This document shows, piece by piece, positions 1 to 32,155 of a DNA stretch of 32,155 nt. The position numbers and the translations under genes are program-made. The notes below the pieces were generated by a model. The model was not told where the DNA came from. It ran no database searches and saw nothing but the letters and a program-made list of their open reading frames with translations. The first letter of the stretch is position 1. Each line of letters opens with the position of its first letter. The stretch spans positions 1 to 32,155 of the forward strand of contig JAMCPC010000121.1 in assembly GCA_023379725.1 (NCBI GenBank), given 5' to 3'. The stretch is from Actinomycetota bacterium (GTDB lineage: Bacteria > Actinomycetota > Acidimicrobiia > Acidimicrobiales > JAMCPL01).

Positions 1-497
1 CTTACCATACCATCTACACTTGAGATGGTCATGCCTGTCAACAACTCTGCCTCAGGGATGTTTGGCGTCAGGATATATGTATATGGCACCAGTAGCTCTC
101 GATACGCCTCTATACCTTCCTCGCTTACCAGCAGATTTCCCGACGATGCCGCAAGCACGGGATCAACTACTACATTTGGCAATTCTCCGGCTTTTATCCG
201 AGACGCAATAGTTGCAACGTTCTCTGCTGTGGCAAGCATACCCACCTTGGTGGCTCTAACCGGTGATCCTGCCACCGCAAGGTCTATCTGTAGACCTAGA
301 AGATCTTTCGGCACAGGCATTATTCCTGCTACTGTGGTAGAATCTTGTGCGGTTACTGCAGTGACTGCATATACACCGCGTACTCCAATTGATTCCAGGG
401 TGCGTATATCGGCCTGCATCCCTGCCCCTCCACTGGAATCTGATCCGGAGATTACAAGGACACCACCAGGGGCGTCATTCGACTGATGAGAACCCAT
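1..497 (-). CDS. thiD: hydroxymethylpyrimidine/phosphomethylpyrimidine kinase ThiD, N-terminal part; the gene runs off the window start
   Basis: Absent from the ORF track because it is open-ended. My minus-strand translation from the ATG (complement of 495-497) reads MGSHQSNDAPGGVLVISGSDSSGGAGMQADIRTLESIGVRGVYAVTAVTAQDS..., the ThiD N-terminal signature. It lies 28 nt downstream of the thiG stop on the same strand. Confidence 0.85.
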   Translation of the reverse strand, partial: MGSHQSNDAPGGVLVISGSDSSGGAGMQADIRTLESIGVRGVYAVTAVTAQDSTTVAGIMPVPKDLLGLQIDLAVAGSPVRATKVGMLATAENVATIASRIKAGELPNVVVDPVLAASSGNLLVSEEGIEAYRELLVPYTYILTPNIPEAELLTGMTISSVDGMV

Positions 498-522
498 GGC
501 TATTTACGGGACGAGCCACTAG
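466..522 (+). repeat. Partial copy E (right-hand ~57 nt) of the interspersed element, spanning the thiG stop / thiD start junction
   Basis: CCAGGGGCGTCATTCGACTGATGAGAACCCATGGCTATTTACGGGACGAGCCACTAG aligns without gaps to the right arm of copy C (reverse complement) at 44 of 57 positions, including the blocks CCAGGGGCGTCAT and AACCCATGG. Confidence 0.75.
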
Positions 523-525
523 GTG

Positions 526-1338
526 TCATTCGGCTGAGGAAAACCCACGGCCATTTGCAAGACCGTCCGTCAGGTCGGCCATACCTTCCATAGATGAGGA
601 TGCAAGTGCCCTGAATCGTCTTGGTATCCTTCCAGCCAGATACGCATCGTGTCCAGCTATAATAGCATTTTTCATTGCAGATGCCATCATTGGAGGGTTC
701 TGTGCCCTTGTAATTGCAGAGGCCACTAGCACTCCAGAGCAACCCAATTCCATTGCCTGTGCAGCCTCTGATGCAGTACCAATACCGGCATCAAGTATTA
801 CCGGCACATTCACGGTGTCGACTATCAAAGCAATATTGTGCGGATTGCGGATTCCAAGGCCACTGCCTATCGGAGCTCCCAGCGGCATAACGGCGACGCA
901 ACCTACCTGTTCAAGACGTTTGGCAACTATGGGGTCGTCGGTAGTATATGGAAACACCTTGAAACCCTTGTCGTATAGGATTTCTGCCGCTCTCAACAGT
1001 TCGTTTACATCCGGTAATAGGGTATCTTCATCTCCTATTACCTCCAACTTCACGTAATCTGTTTCGAGTGCATCCCTGGCCATTTCAGCTGTAAACACTG
1101 CTTCGTGAGCATTGTAGCAACCTGCAGTGTTTGGAAGGACAGTGACGTTATGCTCTTCGAGTACATCCAATATCGATCTTCCTGATGCAACCGATACACG
1201 TCGCATTGCAACTGTCGCCACTGAAGCCTCTGATGCCTGTATGACTCTTTCCAGCACTTCATGGCTCTGCACTCCGCCTGTGCCGAGCAGCAGTCGGTGA
1301 GTTATTTTCAGACCCGCAATATCGACATTCTCTTCCAT
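526..1338 (-). CDS. thiG: thiazole synthase ThiG
   Basis: 270-aa ORF with a typical ThiG sequence (LLLGTGG..., [14 protein letters not shown]). Its start overlaps the thiS stop (TAATG). Confidence 0.95.
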
Positions 1339-2945: not shown

Positions 2946-5900
2946 TTGGATGACGATTGGAACGTTAAAATGAATCCTGCCTGTAAAAGCAGTAATCGCC
3001 GCGTACTCGCTGTGAGCACTGAACAAAACACTACCAGCCTTTATAACCCTGCCTTTGAGCATGATTCATGCGGGATAGCTCTTATAGCTGATATCCACGG
3101 CAACAAGAGCCATGGCATAGTGGAGGATGCGTTGATCGCCCTTCAAAATCTGGCACATCGTGGTGCGACTGGAGCTGAAGAGGAGACTGGCGATGGCGCT
3201 GGGATACTGCTTCAAATGCCTCACGATTTTCTAAAATCACAGACAGAGCTGGGTATAGAAGAAATAGGGGAGGGTAAATATGCCTGTGGTATCGTGTTTA
3301 TGCCCAGGGATGACGATTCGGTACAGAAGTCGATGAGGCGCATAGAAGAATTGGCTAGAGAAGAATCCCTGAAGGTACTTGGTTGGCGCCAAGTACCTGT
3401 GAATGATACATCCATTGGTACCACTGCTGCCGAGGCTATATGCTCATTTTGGCAGGTGGCGGTGGCTCCAACTGCGCCAGTCGACCATGGTGATTTGCAA
3501 GACGGGCCACCAGTGGCCCGTCTTGCAAATAGCGTGACGTTATCCGGCAAGTCAGGGGCATCATCTGGCAAGGCCGAAGACGAAGGCGTAGCCGGTAGCT
3601 ACGTTGAGGATGAGAACGCCGTCAGGGGTGCCATCTGGCCGGCGGGAACCCATGGTGATTTGCGAGACGGGCCACTAGCTATCGATAGAATGGCGTTTTG
3701 CTTAAGAAAACGGGTAGAGCATGAGTTGGATAGTGTCTACGTAGCTTCATTGTCAAGCAGGACAATAGTGTACAAGGGTATGCTGACCTCCCATCAGCTC
3801 TCGTCGTTCTATCCTGACCTATCGGAACCATCCCTTAAGTCAGCTATTGCGATGGTCCATTCCAGGTTCTCCACCAATACCTTTCCATCATGGCCACTTG
3901 CGCATCCCTACAGATATATTGCCCACAACGGCGAGATAAACACTCTGATCAGCAATCGTAATTGGATGCGTGCCAGAGAAGCACTACTCGACTCAGACAT
4001 AATCCAGGGAGATCTGTCCAGGCTCTTTCCTATATGTACCCCCGGTGCATCCGATTCAGCCTCTTTTGATGAGGTAATAGAGCTGCTGCACCTTGGCGGT
4101 AGGTCGTTGCCTCATGCAATACTTATGATGATCCCTGAGGCGTGGGAGAAAAACACAGATATGGATCCACGTATGAGGGATTTCTATATGTACCATGCAT
4201 CCATAATGGAACCATGGGACGGGCCAGCAGCCATGATCTTCACTGATGGCATCATTGCCGGAGGAGTACTGGACAGAAACGGTTTTAGACCATCGCGTTG
4301 GCTTCTCACGAAGGGCGGAAAACTGGTACTTGGCTCTGAGACTGGACTACTGGATATAAATCCAGTAGACATAGTCAGAAAGGGGCGGCTACAGCCGGGG
4401 AAGATGTTCCTTATAGATACATCACAGGGACGTATAATAGAGGATACAGAGATCAAGAGCGCACTAGCATCAGAGCATCCTTACGGTCAATGGTTACAGG
4501 AACAGCAGGTACATCTAAGCGATATGCCATACCGAAAGATGCTGACTCCTCAGCACTCTTCGGTGGTCACACATCAGCGCCTTTTCGGATATACCAATGA
4601 GGATCTAAAGGTAATTATCGGCCCTATGGCCATGGGAGGCCAAGAAGCAGTAGGATCCATGGGCAACGACGCGGCTATTGCAGTATTATCAACGCGCCCC
4701 AGGCTCCTGTATGACTACTTTACCCAGCTATTTGCTCAAGTCACCAACCCGCCACTCGACGCAATAAGGGAAGAACTTGTCACATCCACAAGGACTCAGA
4801 TAGGGTCCGAGGGAAATTTGCTCGATCCTCAACCAGTCTCATGTAAGCAGATTATTCTTGAATATCCAATCATAGACAACGAAGAGCTTGCCAAGTTAAT
4901 GTACGTAAACGAGCATGGAGAGACACCTGGATTCAAAGCATTTACCGTTGACGGGTTGTTCGATTCCTCGGGAGGTGCAAATGCCCTAAGAGATGCTATC
5001 GAATCAGTGCGTTCAAAGGTAAGTGATGCTATTGCGAATGGAGCCAACATAATCATACTCTCAGACCGCAACGCCAGCGCTGAACTAGCTCCTATCCCGA
5101 TGTTGTTGCTTGTCTCTGCCATCCATGAGCACCTGGTGAGAGAGCGCACCAGGACAAAGGTTGGGTTAATCGCTGAGAGTGGTGAGGCCAGAGAGGTTCA
5201 CCATATGGCTCTATTGGTGGCCTATGGAGCATCAGCTATCAACCCCTACCTTGCCTTTGAAACAGTAGATGATATGGTTGCCAGCGGTTTGTTGGAGGAC
5301 ATTTCTGCACTTGAGGCTCGTCGGCACTACATCAAAGCCTGCACAAAGGGGATAGTAAAGGTAATGTCTAAGATGGGTATATCCACAGTGGCATCCTATA
5401 TCGGTTCGCATGTATTTGAAGCCATCGGTCTGGACAGGGATTTCGTGGATGAATACTTTAGTGGTACTACTAGTAGGATAGGCGGCGTAGGGCTCAAAGT
5501 TGTCACAGAGGAGGTATTGAAGCGCCATCGCAGAGCATTCAGCCGGTTGCAGTCGGTACGGGCTCATCGCGAACTAGAGACCGGAGGAGAGTATCAGTGG
5601 CGTCGCGAAGGAGAGGCACACCTGCTGGCCCCAAAGGTAGTATTCAAGGTACAGCAGGCCGTAAGGAACCGCGATTATTCATTGTTCAAGGAATATACCG
5701 ATCTCGTCGATGAGCAATCTGAGCAACTTTGTACATTGAGGGGTATGATGCACTTCAAGAAAGGGGTGAATTCGCCCATTTCCCTGAGCGAGGTGGAATC
5801 GGTATCCAGCATTGTTAAGCGTTTTTCAACCGGTGCCATGTCGTATGGATCGATATCGAAAGAAGCCCATGAGACACTCGCCATTGCAATGAACAGGCTG

Positions 5901-8021
5901 GGTGGAAGGTCGAATACCGGTGAAGGAGGAGAGGACCCCGATAGATTTACAGTAGATCCGAATGGGGATTCTCGGCGTAGTGCCATTAAGCAGGTTGCCT
6001 CGGGACGTTTTGGTGTAACTATAGAATACCTGGTCAATTCAGACGACATACAGATCAAGATCTCCCAGGGAGCCAAACCAGGAGAGGGTGGTCAGTTGCC
6101 GCCGCATAAGGTGTACCCCTGGATAGCGCGTACCAGATATTCTACACCGGGAGTAGGACTTATCTCGCCCCCACCGCACCATGATATTTACTCAATAGAG
6201 GATATTGCTCAGCTCATACACGACCTAAAGTGCTCTAACCCCAATGCTCGCGTACATGTAAAGCTGGTTGCTGAGGTAGGTGTAGGTACTGTAGCGGCAG
6301 GGGTTGCCAAAGCGAAATCAGATGTAGTACTCATATCTGGACATGACGGTGGCACCGGTGCCGCGCCGCTTACCTCTATCAAGCATGCAGGCGTTCCCTG
6401 GGAGATGGGGTTGGCCGAGACAAACCAGGTACTGGTAGCAAACGGCCTACGTGATCGTATAGTCGTTCAGGTGGACGGCCAATTAAAGACCGGCCGTGAC
6501 GTGGTGATCGGAGCGTTACTTGGGGCTGAGGAGTTTGGTTTTGCCACTATGGCTCTGGTTGCACTCGGCTGCGTCATGATGAGAGTATGCCATCTTGACA
6601 CCTGTCCGGTAGGCATCGCCACCCAGAATCCCGTACTGCGTAATCGTTTTACAGGAAAGCCGGATTACGTAGAGGCATTCTTTGAGATGATCGCCGAAGA
6701 GGTACGAGAGTACCTCGCTGAGCTGGGATTGAGATCGTTGGAGGATGCTATAGGCCGGGTGGATCTGCTTGATGTGGAACCTGCCGTAGAGCACTGGAAG
6801 GCACGCGGCCTGGATCTTTCTCCCATACTTACCTTGCCTGCAAATAATTACGGGACTGAACGTTTTCAGTGCGCCGCTCAGAACCATGGAATCGACTCGC
6901 AGTTGGACTGGGAGTTTATTGATGAGTGCATAGCAGGGATTGAGCAGGGCCATCCGGTGGCAGTCGAACTTCCCATAAGAAACGTCCACAGAACTGTAGG
7001 GACACTGCTAAGTCATACCATCGTTTCACGCTTCGGTGCAGGAGGTTCCGGTGGTAGTGACGGTGGTGGTAGTGACAGTGATGGGGGTGCTGGTGGTATG
7101 GATGCTGCTGGTGGTGGTAGTGACGGCGGTAGCGGTAGTAGCAGTGGTGCAGGGGGTACGGGGAGTGCAGGTAATCTACCCAATGACTTTATTGCTATAA
7201 AATTAAACGGTTCCGCTGGACAGAGTTTTGGAGCATTCCTGACGAAGGGAGTGACCCTCCAGCTGGTCGGTGATGCCAATGATTACCTGGGCAAGGGGCT
7301 GTCAGGTGGCAGAATCATTGTAGTGCCTCCACCAGAATCACTGTTCGCTGCTGAGGAACAGATTATCGCGGGTAATGTAATACTCTATGGAGCCACCAGT
7401 GGCGAATTATTCCTGAGAGGGCAAGCCGGTGAAAGATTCTGCGTAAGGAATTCCGGTGCTATTGCGGTTGCGGAGGGAATAGGCGACCACGGATGTGAGT
7501 ACATGACTGGTGGTATAGCTGTTGTATTAGGACCAGTAGGTAGAAACTTTGCTGCCGGCATGTCTGGTGGAGTTGCCTATCTCTATATTGGAGATCTTGA
7601 AAAAACTCCTTGGGAAAATCCAGGTAGTACGGTAACTCAGAGTGATAAGAGTAATATAGCCAATACAGCCAATATGGTCCAGGAGGTTCATGGATCTGGT
7701 GGCGGAGAGGGTATTGTTGAGTACGATATAACTCAATATCAAGTCGCTCAACTATATATTGCCAAGCATATCAATACAGAGATGGTAGACGTGATTGCGC
7801 TTGATGAGGAGGACATCGAATTATTGAGAGACCTGTTGACCAGATATCGTAGTGAGACTGGATCGACAGTTGCCACAACCATATTACACGACTTCAATAG
7901 AGTCTCGAGTCTGTTCTTGAAGGTCATGCCACGAGATTATGCAAAAATTATACAGATTACGAAATTGGCTGAAGCTGAAGGGAGATCGGTAGACGATGCA
8001 GTTATGGAGGCTACGCGATGA
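2946..8021 (+). CDS. gltB: glutamate synthase large subunit GltB, carrying in-frame insertions
   Basis: 1691-aa ORF. It has the Ntn amidotransferase N-terminus ([20 protein letters not shown]), the FMN/Fe-S domain and the C-terminal GXGXG domain ([18 protein letters not shown]). Alternative ATG start at 2970. Confidence 0.97.
3485..3678 (+). mobile_element. Copy A of the ~169-bp TIR-flanked interspersed element (3511-3678), preceded by a 26-bp duplicate of its own right end (3485-3510). It lies entirely inside gltB and is in frame.
   Basis: Aligns end to end with copies B, C and D. CCATGGTGATTTGCRAGACGGGCCAC occurs at 3485-3510 and 3650-3675, exactly 165 bp (55 codons) apart. The gltB frame stays open. 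Confidence 0.9.
7035..7172 (+). repeat. Imperfect GGTGGTAGTGAC-type tandem repeats encoding a Gly/Ser/Asp-rich tract inside GltB
   Basis: Translation is [46 protein letters not shown]. The DNA shows repeated ggtggtagtgac units. Confidence 0.85.
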
Positions 8022-9562: not shown

Positions 9563-9927
9563 TTCGCAAATCAATACCTAGGTAATTGGTATTGAACTGC
9601 CCACAGCTCGGGGAAAGCGGTTACATCCGCCGTGATGGTGCAGGTAAGAGGTTCTCGCATTGTCGATTATGTGCGCAATCCAACAAAAACACCAATCAAC
9701 CAGACAAAGGTAACTTGTTCCATGCCCCCCGGGCAACCCCCCCGGCAACCCAACCGGGAACTTCCGGCGAGAGCTACCAATCAACCATATAAAAGTCACT
9801 TGTTGTATACGCCACGCTCTGAACAGGTAATATGCTTCAACCATAACCCTCAAGTGCAGGTTTAGGGTTTTAATATCTGCTTTTATTGTCATAAAATTGT
9901 GTATTAGCGTTACGTTATAAAAATAGC

Positions 9928-12027: not shown

Positions 12028-12262
12028 TCTACTACTTATGGCACCTTATTTACACCGCCGCAACGTCTATCACTATGAGTTATCCTGGCCATCAAACATA
12101 TTGCAACTCTTGCATATTTCATATTTTTATACCTTCAAAACACGCTTCGTTGCAAAGGCTAGGATGATGGGCAATATGACTGAACAGGAAGCATAAGACA
12201 TAGACTTTTATTATGAATAGAACGACGAGAGCAAACGGAACAACGAACAAGAACAACGAACT

Positions 12263-15393: not shown

Positions 15394-15559
15394 CTAGTGT
15401 AGCGTCCCGCAAATAACCATGGTTCCCACCAGCTAAATGAGCCCCTGACGGTGTTTTCATCCTCAACGTAGCTACCGGCTACGCCTTCGTCTTCGGCCTT
15501 GTCAGACAACACCATAACTTGCCGGATAGTGTCACGCTATTTGCGGGACACTACACTAG
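15394..15559 (-). mobile_element. Copy B of the interspersed element (166 bp, three 1-nt deletions relative to C/D), between convergent gcvPB and the histidine kinase
   Basis: Full-length alignment to copies A, C and D, with TIRs CTAGTGTAGCGTCCCGCAAATA / TATTTGCGGGACACTACACTAG. It overlaps the 3' end of the kinase CDS (15537-15559). Confidence 0.9.
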
Positions 15560-17216
15560 CTGGGGGTTCGGATAGCGGAAGGCGTATCACTACCTCCGTT
15601 CCATCTATACCGCTCTCATGTGAATATATAGATACGGTGCCGTGCATAGCTTCCACCAGTTCCGATACTATAGCGAGCCCAAGCCCGGTACCGCCGCCAG
15701 TGCTTCTTGAGGTGTCTGCACGATAGTGCCGCTCGAATACATGAGCCAGGTCATCGACGGCTATACCGGGTCCGTCATCCAGCACCGATATTACGGCTTG
15801 ACCATTATCGATTCCGTAATGCAGCTGTATCTTACTGCGTGCATACTTCAGGGCATTATCTACTATGTTCCCGATCGACTGCACCAGCCGTCCTTCGTCG
15901 CCATTTACTACGATATTATTTGGATGGCCCGCGGCAACAGACACGCCTTTATCATTGACTATAATACTCTTCGGGTGAGCGTCGAGGACTGCCTCCGCAT
16001 ACCTCTCATCTTCCAACTTGGAAGCTACCAATTTACCAGCTACGGTATTTGTACTCCCAATACCCCCAATACTCCCAATACCCTCAATACCTACCACCTC
16101 TATTACAATGTCCCGCTGATTTGCAACTGGCAAAAAGATGCTAGCTACCTGCTGTACAACTGCCGATATATCTACCGGCTCCATATCGAGTGAGAACCGT
16201 TTGGCCTGCAGGTGGGCGAGGTCAAGAAGATCACGTATCAGTCCATCAAGTCGGTAAGACTCGTCTCTTATTATCTCTACAGCATGCGTGGTGTCGTCTA
16301 CCGCTCCATCAAGGATAGCCTCCGCATAACCGCGAATCGAGGTGAGGGGAGTTCGCAGGTCATGAGAGACAGAGAGAAGAAACTGACGTTCGGACTGCTG
16401 CGAGTTATCCAGTTGGGTAGCCATGTCGTTTATAGCATCAGCGAGGCTGGCTATTTCCCTGTAGTCACGTTGTGAAGTCTCCACTCTGGCTTCAAGCTCT
16501 CCCGAGGCCAGCCGATTGGCAGTAGACACTACATTGCTAATCGAGCTTGCAAGCCGTCTGGAGAGAATCCATGCCACCAACCCGGCTACCAGAAGCGATG
16601 CCAGCCCGATTAAGATGAAATATTCCAGTCCAGTAGAGGGTGGCTTTATCCTGCGAGTCACCACCATGACGACAAGTTCGTTGGTTGCTACATGTAATAC
16701 TGTATTTATACGGGTGGAGAGGTAGAGGGGAACTGCGGCATATGCCAGATGGCCGCTGGCACCTGCTATGGCGTATCCATTAAGTAGCTTTTGCATATCA
16801 AGTTGCGACGCACTCACACCCGGCGGCAAGGTGGTCAGTGGGGGAGCAATCTGGCCGTTAGGTGAGATAGTAACGACTCCTCCTCCTGAAAATCCAGCAG
16901 CGAGAAGAAGTTTTTTTGTATCGCTGACCCGTACATGTGGAGCTATCGTAGCTACCTCTCTGGCATCGGTCAGAATAGATGAAGCCTCTGATGAAGTCGC
17001 AACATGACCCACCAGGACATAGGTGCCCAGCCAGGTAATAGCAAGGGTACCCATGGCAATGAGCACCATAGATAGAAGTATCCTGTAACGTAGCGACCCG
17101 GTCCTGCCTCCTCTGTACGCACCTGCTCCACTGCCGACATTGAAGATGGAACTGAGGCTCGCCGACACCTGCTGACCCGCTACCTGATCACCAGGCATCC
17201 GTTTGTCATCAGTCAA
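15537..17216 (-). CDS. two-component sensor histidine kinase (two TM segments, HAMP, HisKA, HATPase_c)
   Basis: H-box FLLSVSHDLRTPLTSIRGY, N-box NIVDNALKYA, G-boxes DDGPGI and GGTGLGLAIV. The start overlaps the response regulator stop by 8 nt. Confidence 0.9.
   Translation of the reverse strand: MTDDKRMPGDQVAGQQVSASLSSIFNVGSGAGAYRGGRTGSLRYRILLSMVLIAMGTLAITWLGTYVLVGHVATSSEASSILTDAREVATIAPHVRVSDTKKLLLAAGFSGGGVVTISPNGQIAPPLTTLPPGVSASQLDMQKLLNGYAIAGASGHLAYAAVPLYLSTRINTVLHVATNELVVMVVTRRIKPPSTGLEYFILIGLASLLVAGLVAWILSRRLASSISNVVSTANRLASGELEARVETSQRDYREIASLADAINDMATQLDNSQQSERQFLLSVSHDLRTPLTSIRGYAEAILDGAVDDTTHAVEIIRDESYRLDGLIRDLLDLAHLQAKRFSLDMEPVDISAVVQQVASIFLPVANQRDIVIEVVGIEGIGSIGGIGSTNTVAGKLVASKLEDERYAEAVLDAHPKSIIVNDKGVSVAAGHPNNIVVNGDEGRLVQSIGNIVDNALKYARSKIQLHYGIDNGQAVISVLDDGPGIAVDDLAHVFERHYRADTSRSTGGGTGLGLAIVSELVEAMHGTVSIYSHESGIDGTEVVIRLPLSEPPASVVSRK
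16054..16089 (-). repeat. 9-bp tandem repeat x4 (plus strand CYCCCAATA-like units) encoding GIEGIGSIGGIGS inside the kinase catalytic domain
   Basis: Plus strand reads ctcccaata cccccaata ctcccaata ccctcaata. The period of 9 bp preserves the reading frame. Confidence 0.85.
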
Positions 17217-18004: not shown

Positions 18005-18173
18005 CTAGTGTAGTGTCTCGCAAATAACCATGGGTTCCCGCCAGCCAGATGACGCCCCTGGCGGCGTTCTCGTCCTCAACGTAGCTTCCGGCTACGCCTT
18101 CGTCCTCGGCCTTGCCAGATGACGCCCCTGACTTGCCGGATAACGTCACGCTATTTACGAGACACTACACTAG
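18005..18173 (-). mobile_element. Copy C of the interspersed element (169 bp) in the divergent intergenic region between the response regulator and der
   Basis: TIRs CTAGTGTAGTGTCTCGCAAATA / TATTTACGAGACACTACACTAG. There is an internal 17-nt direct repeat GCCAGATGACGCCCCTG x2 and a central hairpin CGTAGC-TTCCG-GCTACG. Nearly identical to copy D. Confidence 0.93.
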
Positions 18174-24978: not shown

Positions 24979-25035
24979 CTTGCCTTATTCCCGAGCACTG
25001 GATAATGTAATGCTATTTACGAGATACTAGACTGG
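24979..25035 (-). repeat. Degenerate partial copy (one arm) of the interspersed element, 13 nt upstream of the HAD gene start
   Basis: 25000-25035 (GGATAATGTAATGCTATTTACGAGATACTAGACTGG) matches the copy C end GGATAACGTCACGCTATTTACGAGACACTACACTAG at 30 of 36 positions without gaps. Weaker similarity extends back to CTTGCC at 24979. Confidence 0.6.
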
Positions 25036-31897: not shown

Positions 31898-32155
31898 GTC
31901 TAGTGCAGTGCTTCGTAAATAGCGTGACGTTATCCGGCAAGTCAGGGGCGTCATCTGGCAAGGCCGAGGACGAAGGCGTAGCCGGAAGCTACGTTGAGGA
32001 CGAGAACGCCGTCAGGGGTGTCATCTGCCTGGCGGGAACCCATGGTTATTTGCGAGACACTACACTAAGTTTTGATCTCCTTCCCACGGCTGAACTTGGA
32101 CACTGCTCAAGTCGAGCACTGCCGTACGGTGGATATGGTAAGTTCGTAGAATTAC
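31894..32155 (+). CDS. Open reading frame running through copy D and off the window end. By synteny it may be the N-terminus of the gene downstream of pyrG (a NUDIX hydrolase in mycobacteria). Start unresolved (GTG 31894, GTG 31903 or TTG 32050).
   Basis: My translation: [87 protein letters not shown]... with no stop before the window end. The other two plus-strand frames after the element hit stops. Confidence 0.3.
31900..32069 (+). mobile_element. Copy D of the interspersed element (170 bp), starting 2 nt after the pyrG stop codon
   Basis: Full-length alignment to A, B and C. Left end CTAGTGCAGTGCTTCGTAAATA, right end TATTTGCGAGACACTACACTAAG. Confidence 0.93.

Follow-up and report, generated by a model that had tools for sequence, protein, structure and literature searches.

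Why should a mobile repeat lying in frame within the gene of a conserved enzyme carry matching changes at both of its ends, when only one of the two changes is needed to keep the reading frame open? The question arises from a 32,155-nt stretch of DNA from an Actinomycetota bacterium (GenBank assembly GCA_023379725.1, contig JAMCPC010000121.1; hereafter the window), in which the gltB gene, encoding the large subunit of glutamate synthase, contains a 169-bp hairpin MITE (miniature inverted-repeat transposable element), here called the W element. The original prediction, made from the letters of the window, was that in this copy (copy A) the left-end block TAGT has become GCCC and the right-end block ACTA has become GGGC. 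The complementary GCCC/GGGC ends are confirmed, and the TAGT/ACTA form is seen in copy C of the same window and at locus L001. Our main explanation, which we hold to be probable but well short of certain, is that a hairpin constraint keeps the two ends paired within lineages of the element and that the gltB copy comes from a stop-free sublineage. The features needed for the argument are the following.

2970..8021, plus strand: gltB, glutamate synthase large subunit (Pfam, PDB alignment, homologue alignment, and orthologues in L051 and L052)
3485..3510, plus strand: E1, a 26-nt right-end fragment of an older copy, abutting copy A and forming a palindrome with its left end
3510..3678, plus strand: copy A of the W element (nhmmer and alignment with other copies)
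3510..3531, plus strand: left terminal inverted repeat of copy A, reading CCAGTGGCCCGTCTTGCAAATA, with the variant block GCCC at 3516-3519
3585..3607, plus strand: apical hairpin core of copy A, GGCGTAGCCGGTAGCTACGTTGA, with exact matches in unrelated element types
3657..3678, plus strand: right terminal inverted repeat of copy A, ending in ...ATTTGCGAGACGGGCCACTAG, with the complementary block GGGC at 3669-3672
18005..18173, minus strand: copy C, of the TAGT/ACTA form, between a response-regulator gene and der

Copy A ends at 3678 as predicted, but starts at 3510 and not at 3511. Measured from CTAG to CTAG the W element is 169 bp long, and its insertion adds 165 bp, or 55 codons, if one TA is counted as a duplication. 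Its terminal inverted repeats span 22-27 bp, with 20-22 of 22 positions paired in most copies. We found 12 independent full copies with differing flanks, plus relics, and no transposase gene within the 169 bp. The same element is present in metagenome-assembled genomes (MAGs) of related acid-mine Actinomycetota, where contigs are often broken inside it, and further loci (designated L with a number) were recovered through short open reading frames (ORFs) called across it. Nearly all copies are flanked as C-TA-[element]-TA-G, which suggests a TA duplication within CTAG; this flank pattern is that of IS630-type elements.

The gltB ORF carries the full GltB domain set, and the insert interrupts the GATase_2 domain near profile position 143 (Pfam). 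In the PDB alignment, solved GltS structures offer no equivalent for about 64 residues, and the position corresponds in GltB homologues to a short variable linker. From these alignments, the insert probably sits in a variable surface loop of the amidotransferase domain and would be translated as part of the protein. No stop codon occurs in copy A in the gltB frame. When copy C is translated in the same frame it reads LV*CLVNS...YLRDTTL; its single stop is the TAG in the left repeat, the right side being free of stops, as the original prediction stated for the canonical ends. The gltB genes of three strains (the window, L051 and L052) are 99.8-99.9% identical, and all have the insert with the frame intact; in L052 the element has even undergone an in-frame deletion of 114 nt, or 38 codons (approximately 3680-3800, equivalent to window positions 3523-3636). 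All three strains agree in the right end of the gltB copy. The left end in L051 reads GTGGCCACTC (CTAGTGGCCACTCTTGC), preceded by the upstream fragment GACAGGCCAC. Over the 17.8 kb compared between the window and L051, 13 of the 53 substitutions fall in 489 nt of element-derived sequence; E1 and copy A together account for five, of which four map to the junction and left repeat. Intact frames combined with a changing left end indicate that the gltB frame is protected while the left repeat of copy A drifts. Farther along gltB, at 7044-7154 and just before the GXGXG domain, there is a second insertion-like, low-complexity segment made up of degenerate repeats of 15-27 nt in which G, S and D codons abound.

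Paired end variants are not confined to copy A. Among the 12 independent full copies, the TAGT/ACTA form occurs in copy C, L048 and L001 and the GCCC/GGGC form in copy A, and compensated pairs are also present in L038 (GCCT/AGGC), L044 (GTCT/AGAC) and L056 (CAGT/ACTG). The chance that a 4-nt block is exactly complemented at the opposite end is approximately 0.004 per variant, and with at least these three further, independent compensated variants the pairing is not attributable to chance. The end variants also recur at several loci. The 26-nt duplicate at 3485-3510 was predicted to carry the same variant as copy A or a near-identical one, and 25 of its 26 bases match the right end of that copy. 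Likewise, a relic of which the same was predicted, now placed at 450-578, ends in GAGCCACTAG. GGGC-type or related ends are present in addition at L001 4708-4767 and in the left end of L028, as expected if the variant marks a subfamily, a reading already offered in the original prediction, and GGGC- and GCCA-type ends occur in fragments of L001 and L002. A deletion between internal direct repeats (GTCAGGGG...CATCTGGC) has removed the core from shorter derivatives of about 100 nt, which keep compensated GTCT-type ends (L045 237-331, L046 4147-4243 and L046 9909-10001); two of them stand head to tail with a full element. This recurrence suggests lineages that spread after both ends had changed.

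Covariation between paired positions was assessed in 13 distinct W sequences on the minimum free energy structure of copy C, with 500 shuffles and a control in which pairing partners were slid. Pairing was found in 95.6% of cells, compared with 92.8 +/- 0.4 when shuffled, and no shuffle of the 500 reached as high a value. Ten pairs have changed on both sides (1/500 shuffles), and the covariation score is 0.149, against 0.100 for shuffled sequences and 0.04-0.05 with slid partners. The covarying terminal pairs include positions 7-10 with 160-163 and 14 with 156, while every one-sided change in the terminal stem (pairs 13/157, 15/155 and 17/153) is of the U-G type. Two interior pairs, 59/113 and 69/102, also covary, appearing as GC, GU and AU by way of G-U intermediates. 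As the segments that hold these interior pairs are direct and not inverted repeats at the DNA level, they could pair only within a single strand that allows G-U or G-T. Differences per site amount to 0.335 in columns 7-17 and 153-163, compared with values elsewhere of 0.008 (inner repeat), 0.04-0.065 (arms) and 0.03-0.04 (core). Near either end there is thus a block of 11 bp that exceeds the remainder of the element 5-40 times in variability and nevertheless covaries.

The two strands differ in their predicted folds. The strand bearing GGCGUAGCCGGNAGCUACGUUGA, which is the sense strand of gltB, is predicted to fold as a full-length, rod-like hairpin, with -88.5 kcal/mol (z = -7.6) for copy A and -93 kcal/mol (z = -9.2) for copy C. 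The antisense fold is weaker, at -66 to -68 kcal/mol with z of about -4 (-65.9 kcal/mol and z = -3.75 for the opposite strand of copy A). With one representative taken per element type, the sense stems contain 47 G-U pairs compared with 22 A-C mismatches.

Is the variant linked to coding? An exhaustive profile search identified one more long protein with an in-frame copy, a glycosyltransferase of 2033 amino acids (P0143) encoded next to flagellin genes, in which the element occupies 7390-7558 of L056-L058. With CCAGTGCAGTG... at its left end and ...CACTGCACTAG at its right end, this copy is of the compensated CAGT/ACTG form; its stop was lost by a single T-to-C change, matched by an A-to-G change on the right. 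The glycosyltransferase and gltB copies both begin with CCAG rather than CTAG. A word-indexed protein search returned only short ORFs of 43-92 amino acids over intergenic copies and no further in-frame insertion. However, stop-free blocks (GCCT, GTCT, GCCCA and CAGT) are also present in six of the ten independent intergenic full copies, and an enrichment of the stop-free variant in genes is therefore not demonstrable; for the same reason we cannot uphold the proposal that the variant exists to open the gltB frame. The notion of a coding-competent subfamily fared no better. Of the shuffles of this composition, 97% contain a frame with no more than one stop, which is thus expected by chance, and other element types are stopped in all or most frames, so that coding competence was rejected as a special property of the family.

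These results can be brought together in the following scenario. The W element would be a non-autonomous transposable element, moved by a transposase of the IS630 type. Its terminal repeats would form the basal stem of a rod hairpin in which positions 7-17 of each end are free in sequence and constrained in pairing. Sublineages would then differ from each other in their ends while the two ends match within each element, and the occurrence of each sublineage at two or more loci implies that it spread after both ends had changed. Copy A would have landed in the terminal CTAG of an older copy that is now mostly deleted. The 26-nt fragment E1 continues past the palindrome with the right-end sequence CCATGGTG, which makes it the remnant of an earlier copy whose CTAG was the target of copy A; for the same reason a fold-back copy of the left end is ruled out as its origin. 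The gltB copy would have inherited a pre-existing, stop-free GCCC/GGGC variant. An in-frame insertion with the TAG form would truncate GltB and be lost, and selection would therefore have filtered the variant that survived in gltB without having created it there. In our assessment inheritance of the paired variant is the most likely origin of the gltB copy, and repair in place was probably not its origin. Pairing would matter because a single-stranded hairpin, of RNA or of one DNA strand, would be the form in which the element spreads or acts, and the paired changes themselves may first arise at the palindromic right end-TA-left end junctions of head-to-tail dimers.

Such junctions are also the basis of the most serious rival. 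At 3493-3510 and 3513-3530 of the window, E1 and the left end of copy A form a perfect palindrome of 18+18 nt, which is imperfect in the sister strains L051 and L052. In L045 and L046b a short element is followed by TA and then by a full element, head to tail, and the junction is a perfect 17+17 palindrome in L045 but imperfect in the orthologous L046b and L047. Since the junctions differ between close strains at two independent loci, templating at the DNA level stays alive as a source of paired changes, and these palindromes of abutting right and left ends lend some support to the earlier suggestion that one end is templated from the other. Templating alone, with no selection on a hairpin, would mean that one arm serves as the template for the other, through quasi-palindrome correction by template switching or through short-patch gene conversion, an account that we consider possible but clearly less probable than the hairpin constraint. 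It would act especially at head-to-tail junctions, and ectopic conversion would homogenise the interior and miss the last 17 nt or so. It accords with the concentration of window-versus-L051 substitutions at the junction and with block changes that span several nucleotides at once on nearly identical interiors. However, templating should yield perfect Watson-Crick arms, whereas the stems keep an excess of G-U over A-C, always on the same strand, the sense strand, which in every case folds better; the interior covarying pairs stand in direct repeats that cannot template each other; and the 26-nt fragment, by its continuation, is a true right end. The requirement for a single-stranded hairpin in propagating lineages thus remains the most likely reason why pairing is kept, with templating at junctions as a serious rival or a contributor.

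The remaining alternatives are much less probable. If each block variant were the recognition site of a different transposase, the ends would covary through the same protein and no hairpin would be needed. One transposase must indeed recognise both ends, and each variant is found at several loci, but at least six variants would call for as many transposases in a small genome, and none was found in the retrieved loci. The block also varies far more than the neighbouring, invariant segments of the repeat, which look like the actual binding and cleavage sites, and both the interior covariation and the strand asymmetry would be left unexplained; we regard this reading as improbable. Repair in place, whereby a TAGT/ACTA insertion truncated gltB, selection fixed GCCC and second changes restored pairing on the right, seems more improbable again. 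It would fit the observations that TAG is the only stop in the frame and that both known in-frame copies are stop-free. It would require, however, 4 + 4 substitutions to occur in concert within a gene almost identical elsewhere between strains. The same or closely related blocks exist outside genes, and stop-free variants are found in six of the ten intergenic copies; the older adjacent fragment already has GGGC, and three strains have kept the right end unchanged, whereas the left end is losing its pairing. Least probable of all, and very unlikely in our view, is an artefact of assembly or consensus calling at the hairpin, or chance. Palindromes are error-prone in short reads, and the fact that L045 and L046b agree in the upstream flank and differ in the downstream one suggests chimeric joins at the repeat. 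Yet the variants recur in independent assemblies (L038 in 6, L028 in 10 and L056 in 7 contigs), unique internal bases of copy A link its two ends, and the chance of exact complementation, as given above, is low. With regard to those flanks, L045 has the upstream flank and the short element in common with both L046b and L047 and differs from them in the right end of the full element and the downstream flank, a difference attributable to a rearrangement involving repeat copies or else to chimeric assembly at the repeat.

Several observations weigh against the hairpin constraint itself. In L051 the gltB copy shows two mismatches through drift of its left end, its right end being unchanged, and the claim that pairing is maintained for its own sake, although favoured by covariation above the shuffled and slid controls, does not hold strictly at the gltB site. 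Copy D of the window, L028, L045 and L046b are uncompensated or only partly compensated, with three mismatches in D, two in L028, and variant left ends combined with ACTA- or ACTG-type right ends in L045 and L046b. It should be noted that the relatedness of the copies inflates the covariation statistics, and that the end blocks are 157 nt apart in assemblies made with k = 141, so that short reads cannot always link them. No empty gltB site was found: the three close strains all have the insert, distant homologues are simply without it, and none of the strains compared has an empty site, so that the TA duplication and the mobility suggested by the flanks are putative. No transposase with matching ends was present in approximately 0.5 Mb of retrieved loci. 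Finally, W-related elements are oriented at random with respect to neighbouring genes (14 share the strand of the gene and 17 lie on the opposite one), and so give no sign of a need for co-transcription. Taken as a whole, the interpretation put forward in the original prediction is partly supported.

The window contains the following further copies and relics.

450..578, plus strand: two tandem right-half relics, the first of which has the GGGC-related end given above
15394..15559, minus strand: copy B, at the 3' terminus of a gene for a histidine kinase
25000..25033, minus strand: left-end relic, AGTCTAGTATCTCGTAAATAGC...
31900..32068, plus strand: copy D, downstream of pyrG, with an orthologue at L046 2209-2377

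The core lies at 3585-3607, 15463-15485, 18076-18098 and 31975-31997 in the four full copies. In copy B the inner pair is compensated (GTCCCGC/GCGGGAC) and the terminal block is a TAGT/GCTA derivative of TAGT/ACTA, whereas copy D, with CAGT..C on the left and ACTA on the right, is uncompensated. The histidine kinase ORF terminates within the left repeat of copy B (15537-15559, minus strand), and its last six codons and stop (AAA TAG) are element-derived. The right repeat of copy C contains an outward -35-like TTGCGA, followed 17 nt on in the flank by CATAAT, directed toward the response-regulator gene (18023-17995, minus strand). Between the TAGT/ACTA form of the window (49% GC) and that of L001/L002 (MAG JAMCPL01, 55-56% GC) one loop base differs; the near-identity of this form in two Actinomycetota genomes of unlike G+C suggests a recent transfer or a binning error.

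The apical core extends beyond the W element. A metagenome scan with the 23-nt core returned 25 loci (L003-L027) that represent at least nine other element types with unrelated arms and terminal repeats. Each has the exact core GGCGTAGCCGGNAGCTACGTTGA at its tip, an exactness that follows from the use of the core as the search pattern, and the elements are 166-173 nt long with TA or CTAG ends and rod folds. We define the core-sharing group by the apex GGCGUAGC-CGGNA-GCUACGUU with arms that differ but pair, and the folds of nine types fit this description. RNAalifold predicts 59 pairs for the nine types, 44 of them with compensatory changes, although the arms outside the core are only 55-72% identical even in an alignment that optimises identity. 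Purine-rich motifs beside the core, (C/U)AGGAGCNGGAGCGA and GAGCGGAGAGCGACAC, are also common to the types and were not imposed by the scan. The T1 type has no hypervariable terminal block, and one core-sharing type adjoins a gene whose best named relatives are from Firmicutes and Ruminococcus. An element of the T3 type (approximately 562-727, minus strand) lies inside a DDE_5 transposase ORF (L006 315-1235, plus strand), where antisense read-through meets no stop and the Pfam match is split in two.

On this basis it may be proposed, tentatively and with more doubt than confidence, that the W element belongs to an undescribed superfamily of mobile rod elements of about 170 nt spread over at least two phyla (Actinomycetota and Firmicutes). 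Such a superfamily would be defined, in this equally tentative proposal, by the apical hairpin GGCGUAGCCGGNAGCUACGUUGA with its purine-rich flanking loops and not by terminal repeats. Searches of Rfam 15 gave no match at the gathering threshold for the window and 11 loci, only noise at E <= 10 for window positions 3440-3740, and nothing at E <= 1 for four loci of other types. Sequence searches with the core or whole elements found no match in plasmids, viral contigs or E. coli genomes, and a full-text literature search for the core sequence found no paper. Possible resemblances of the core to rRNA, signal recognition particle RNA, ERIC or Correia received no support from any tool and were dropped. 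An exact 23-nt hairpin in distant bacteria points to a conserved structured module whose function is undescribed; if that module is real, relationships among MITEs could be defined by internal structure rather than by terminal repeats. If the superfamily is real, the selected unit would be a single-stranded structure, either a mobile structured RNA or a strand-specific DNA hairpin in transposition, and the hypervariable, covarying terminal block of the W element would be a direct read-out of the structural requirement.

How does the W element compare with known systems? The MITEs of the IS630/Tc1-mariner group (Correia/NEMIS, RUP and Nezha) are 100-200 bp long, with terminal inverted repeats and TA duplication in CTAG-like targets, and they give rise to hairpin-forming transcripts and carry outward promoter elements in their ends. 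Membership of these families is set by the terminal repeats, with a variable interior, whereas in the group that includes W the core is common and the terminal repeats differ. The Rickettsia palindromic elements (Ogata et al. 2000, as cited in PMC3184786) are short palindromic mobile repeats of about 105-146 bp that occur in frame in protein genes and are translated, adding a peptide segment. The W element resembles them in function only, through the intact gltB frame in three strains, the insert in a variable loop and the glycosyltransferase as a second case. Host phylum and sequence are unrelated, and the W element is mostly intergenic, with two in-frame cases found, and has CTAG/TA ends and a hypervariable covarying block in its terminal repeats. 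RU-2/YPAL (168 bp) and RU-1/ERIC (127 bp) are TA-flanked hairpin MITEs with TA target duplication; RU-2 has an open frame of 56 codons, and RU open frames are known to be fused to host genes (PMC2759123, PMC2229807). There is no sequence similarity between W and RU-2 (best blastn-short matches of 7-8 nt, at chance level), and neither a conserved apical core nor a hypervariable paired terminal block is described for RU repeats. The bcr1 repeats of the Bacillus cereus group are mobile, about 155 bp long and transcribed, and compensatory changes keep their RNA secondary structure (PMC3184786). In a comparison made by description only, bcr1 differs from W in being flanked by 5-bp direct repeats instead of TA and in the lack of reports of in-frame copies within large enzymes.

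In-frame MITEs and hairpin-preserving compensation are therefore already known from these systems (the Rickettsia elements, RU-1/RU-2 and bcr1). That MITEs lying in frame can add new peptide segments to conserved enzymes is known, and that part of the gltB case is ordinary. What is unusual in the W element is the hypervariable covarying terminal block together with an internal core common to unrelated types. An 11-bp block that is variable and yet paired amounts to a natural experiment on whether the ends of a bacterial MITE must base-pair, and in which nucleic acid.

A guide-like match of the variable block to the flanks was sought by eye and none was seen, a lone 10-nt match to the native rplF start in L044 being judged coincidental. 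Elsewhere in the window, the region between gltD and a merR-like gene contains a 41-nt direct repeat (9691-9731 and 9776-9816) with 78% identity at a distance of 85 nt, and three tandem 9-nt units (TACTCCCAA and variants) are found within the histidine kinase gene at 16052-16087. The intergenic segment at 12141-12250, upstream of gcvP, differs from the sister strains by 11 substitutions and a 13-nt indel and is the other hot spot of divergence besides the element-derived segments.

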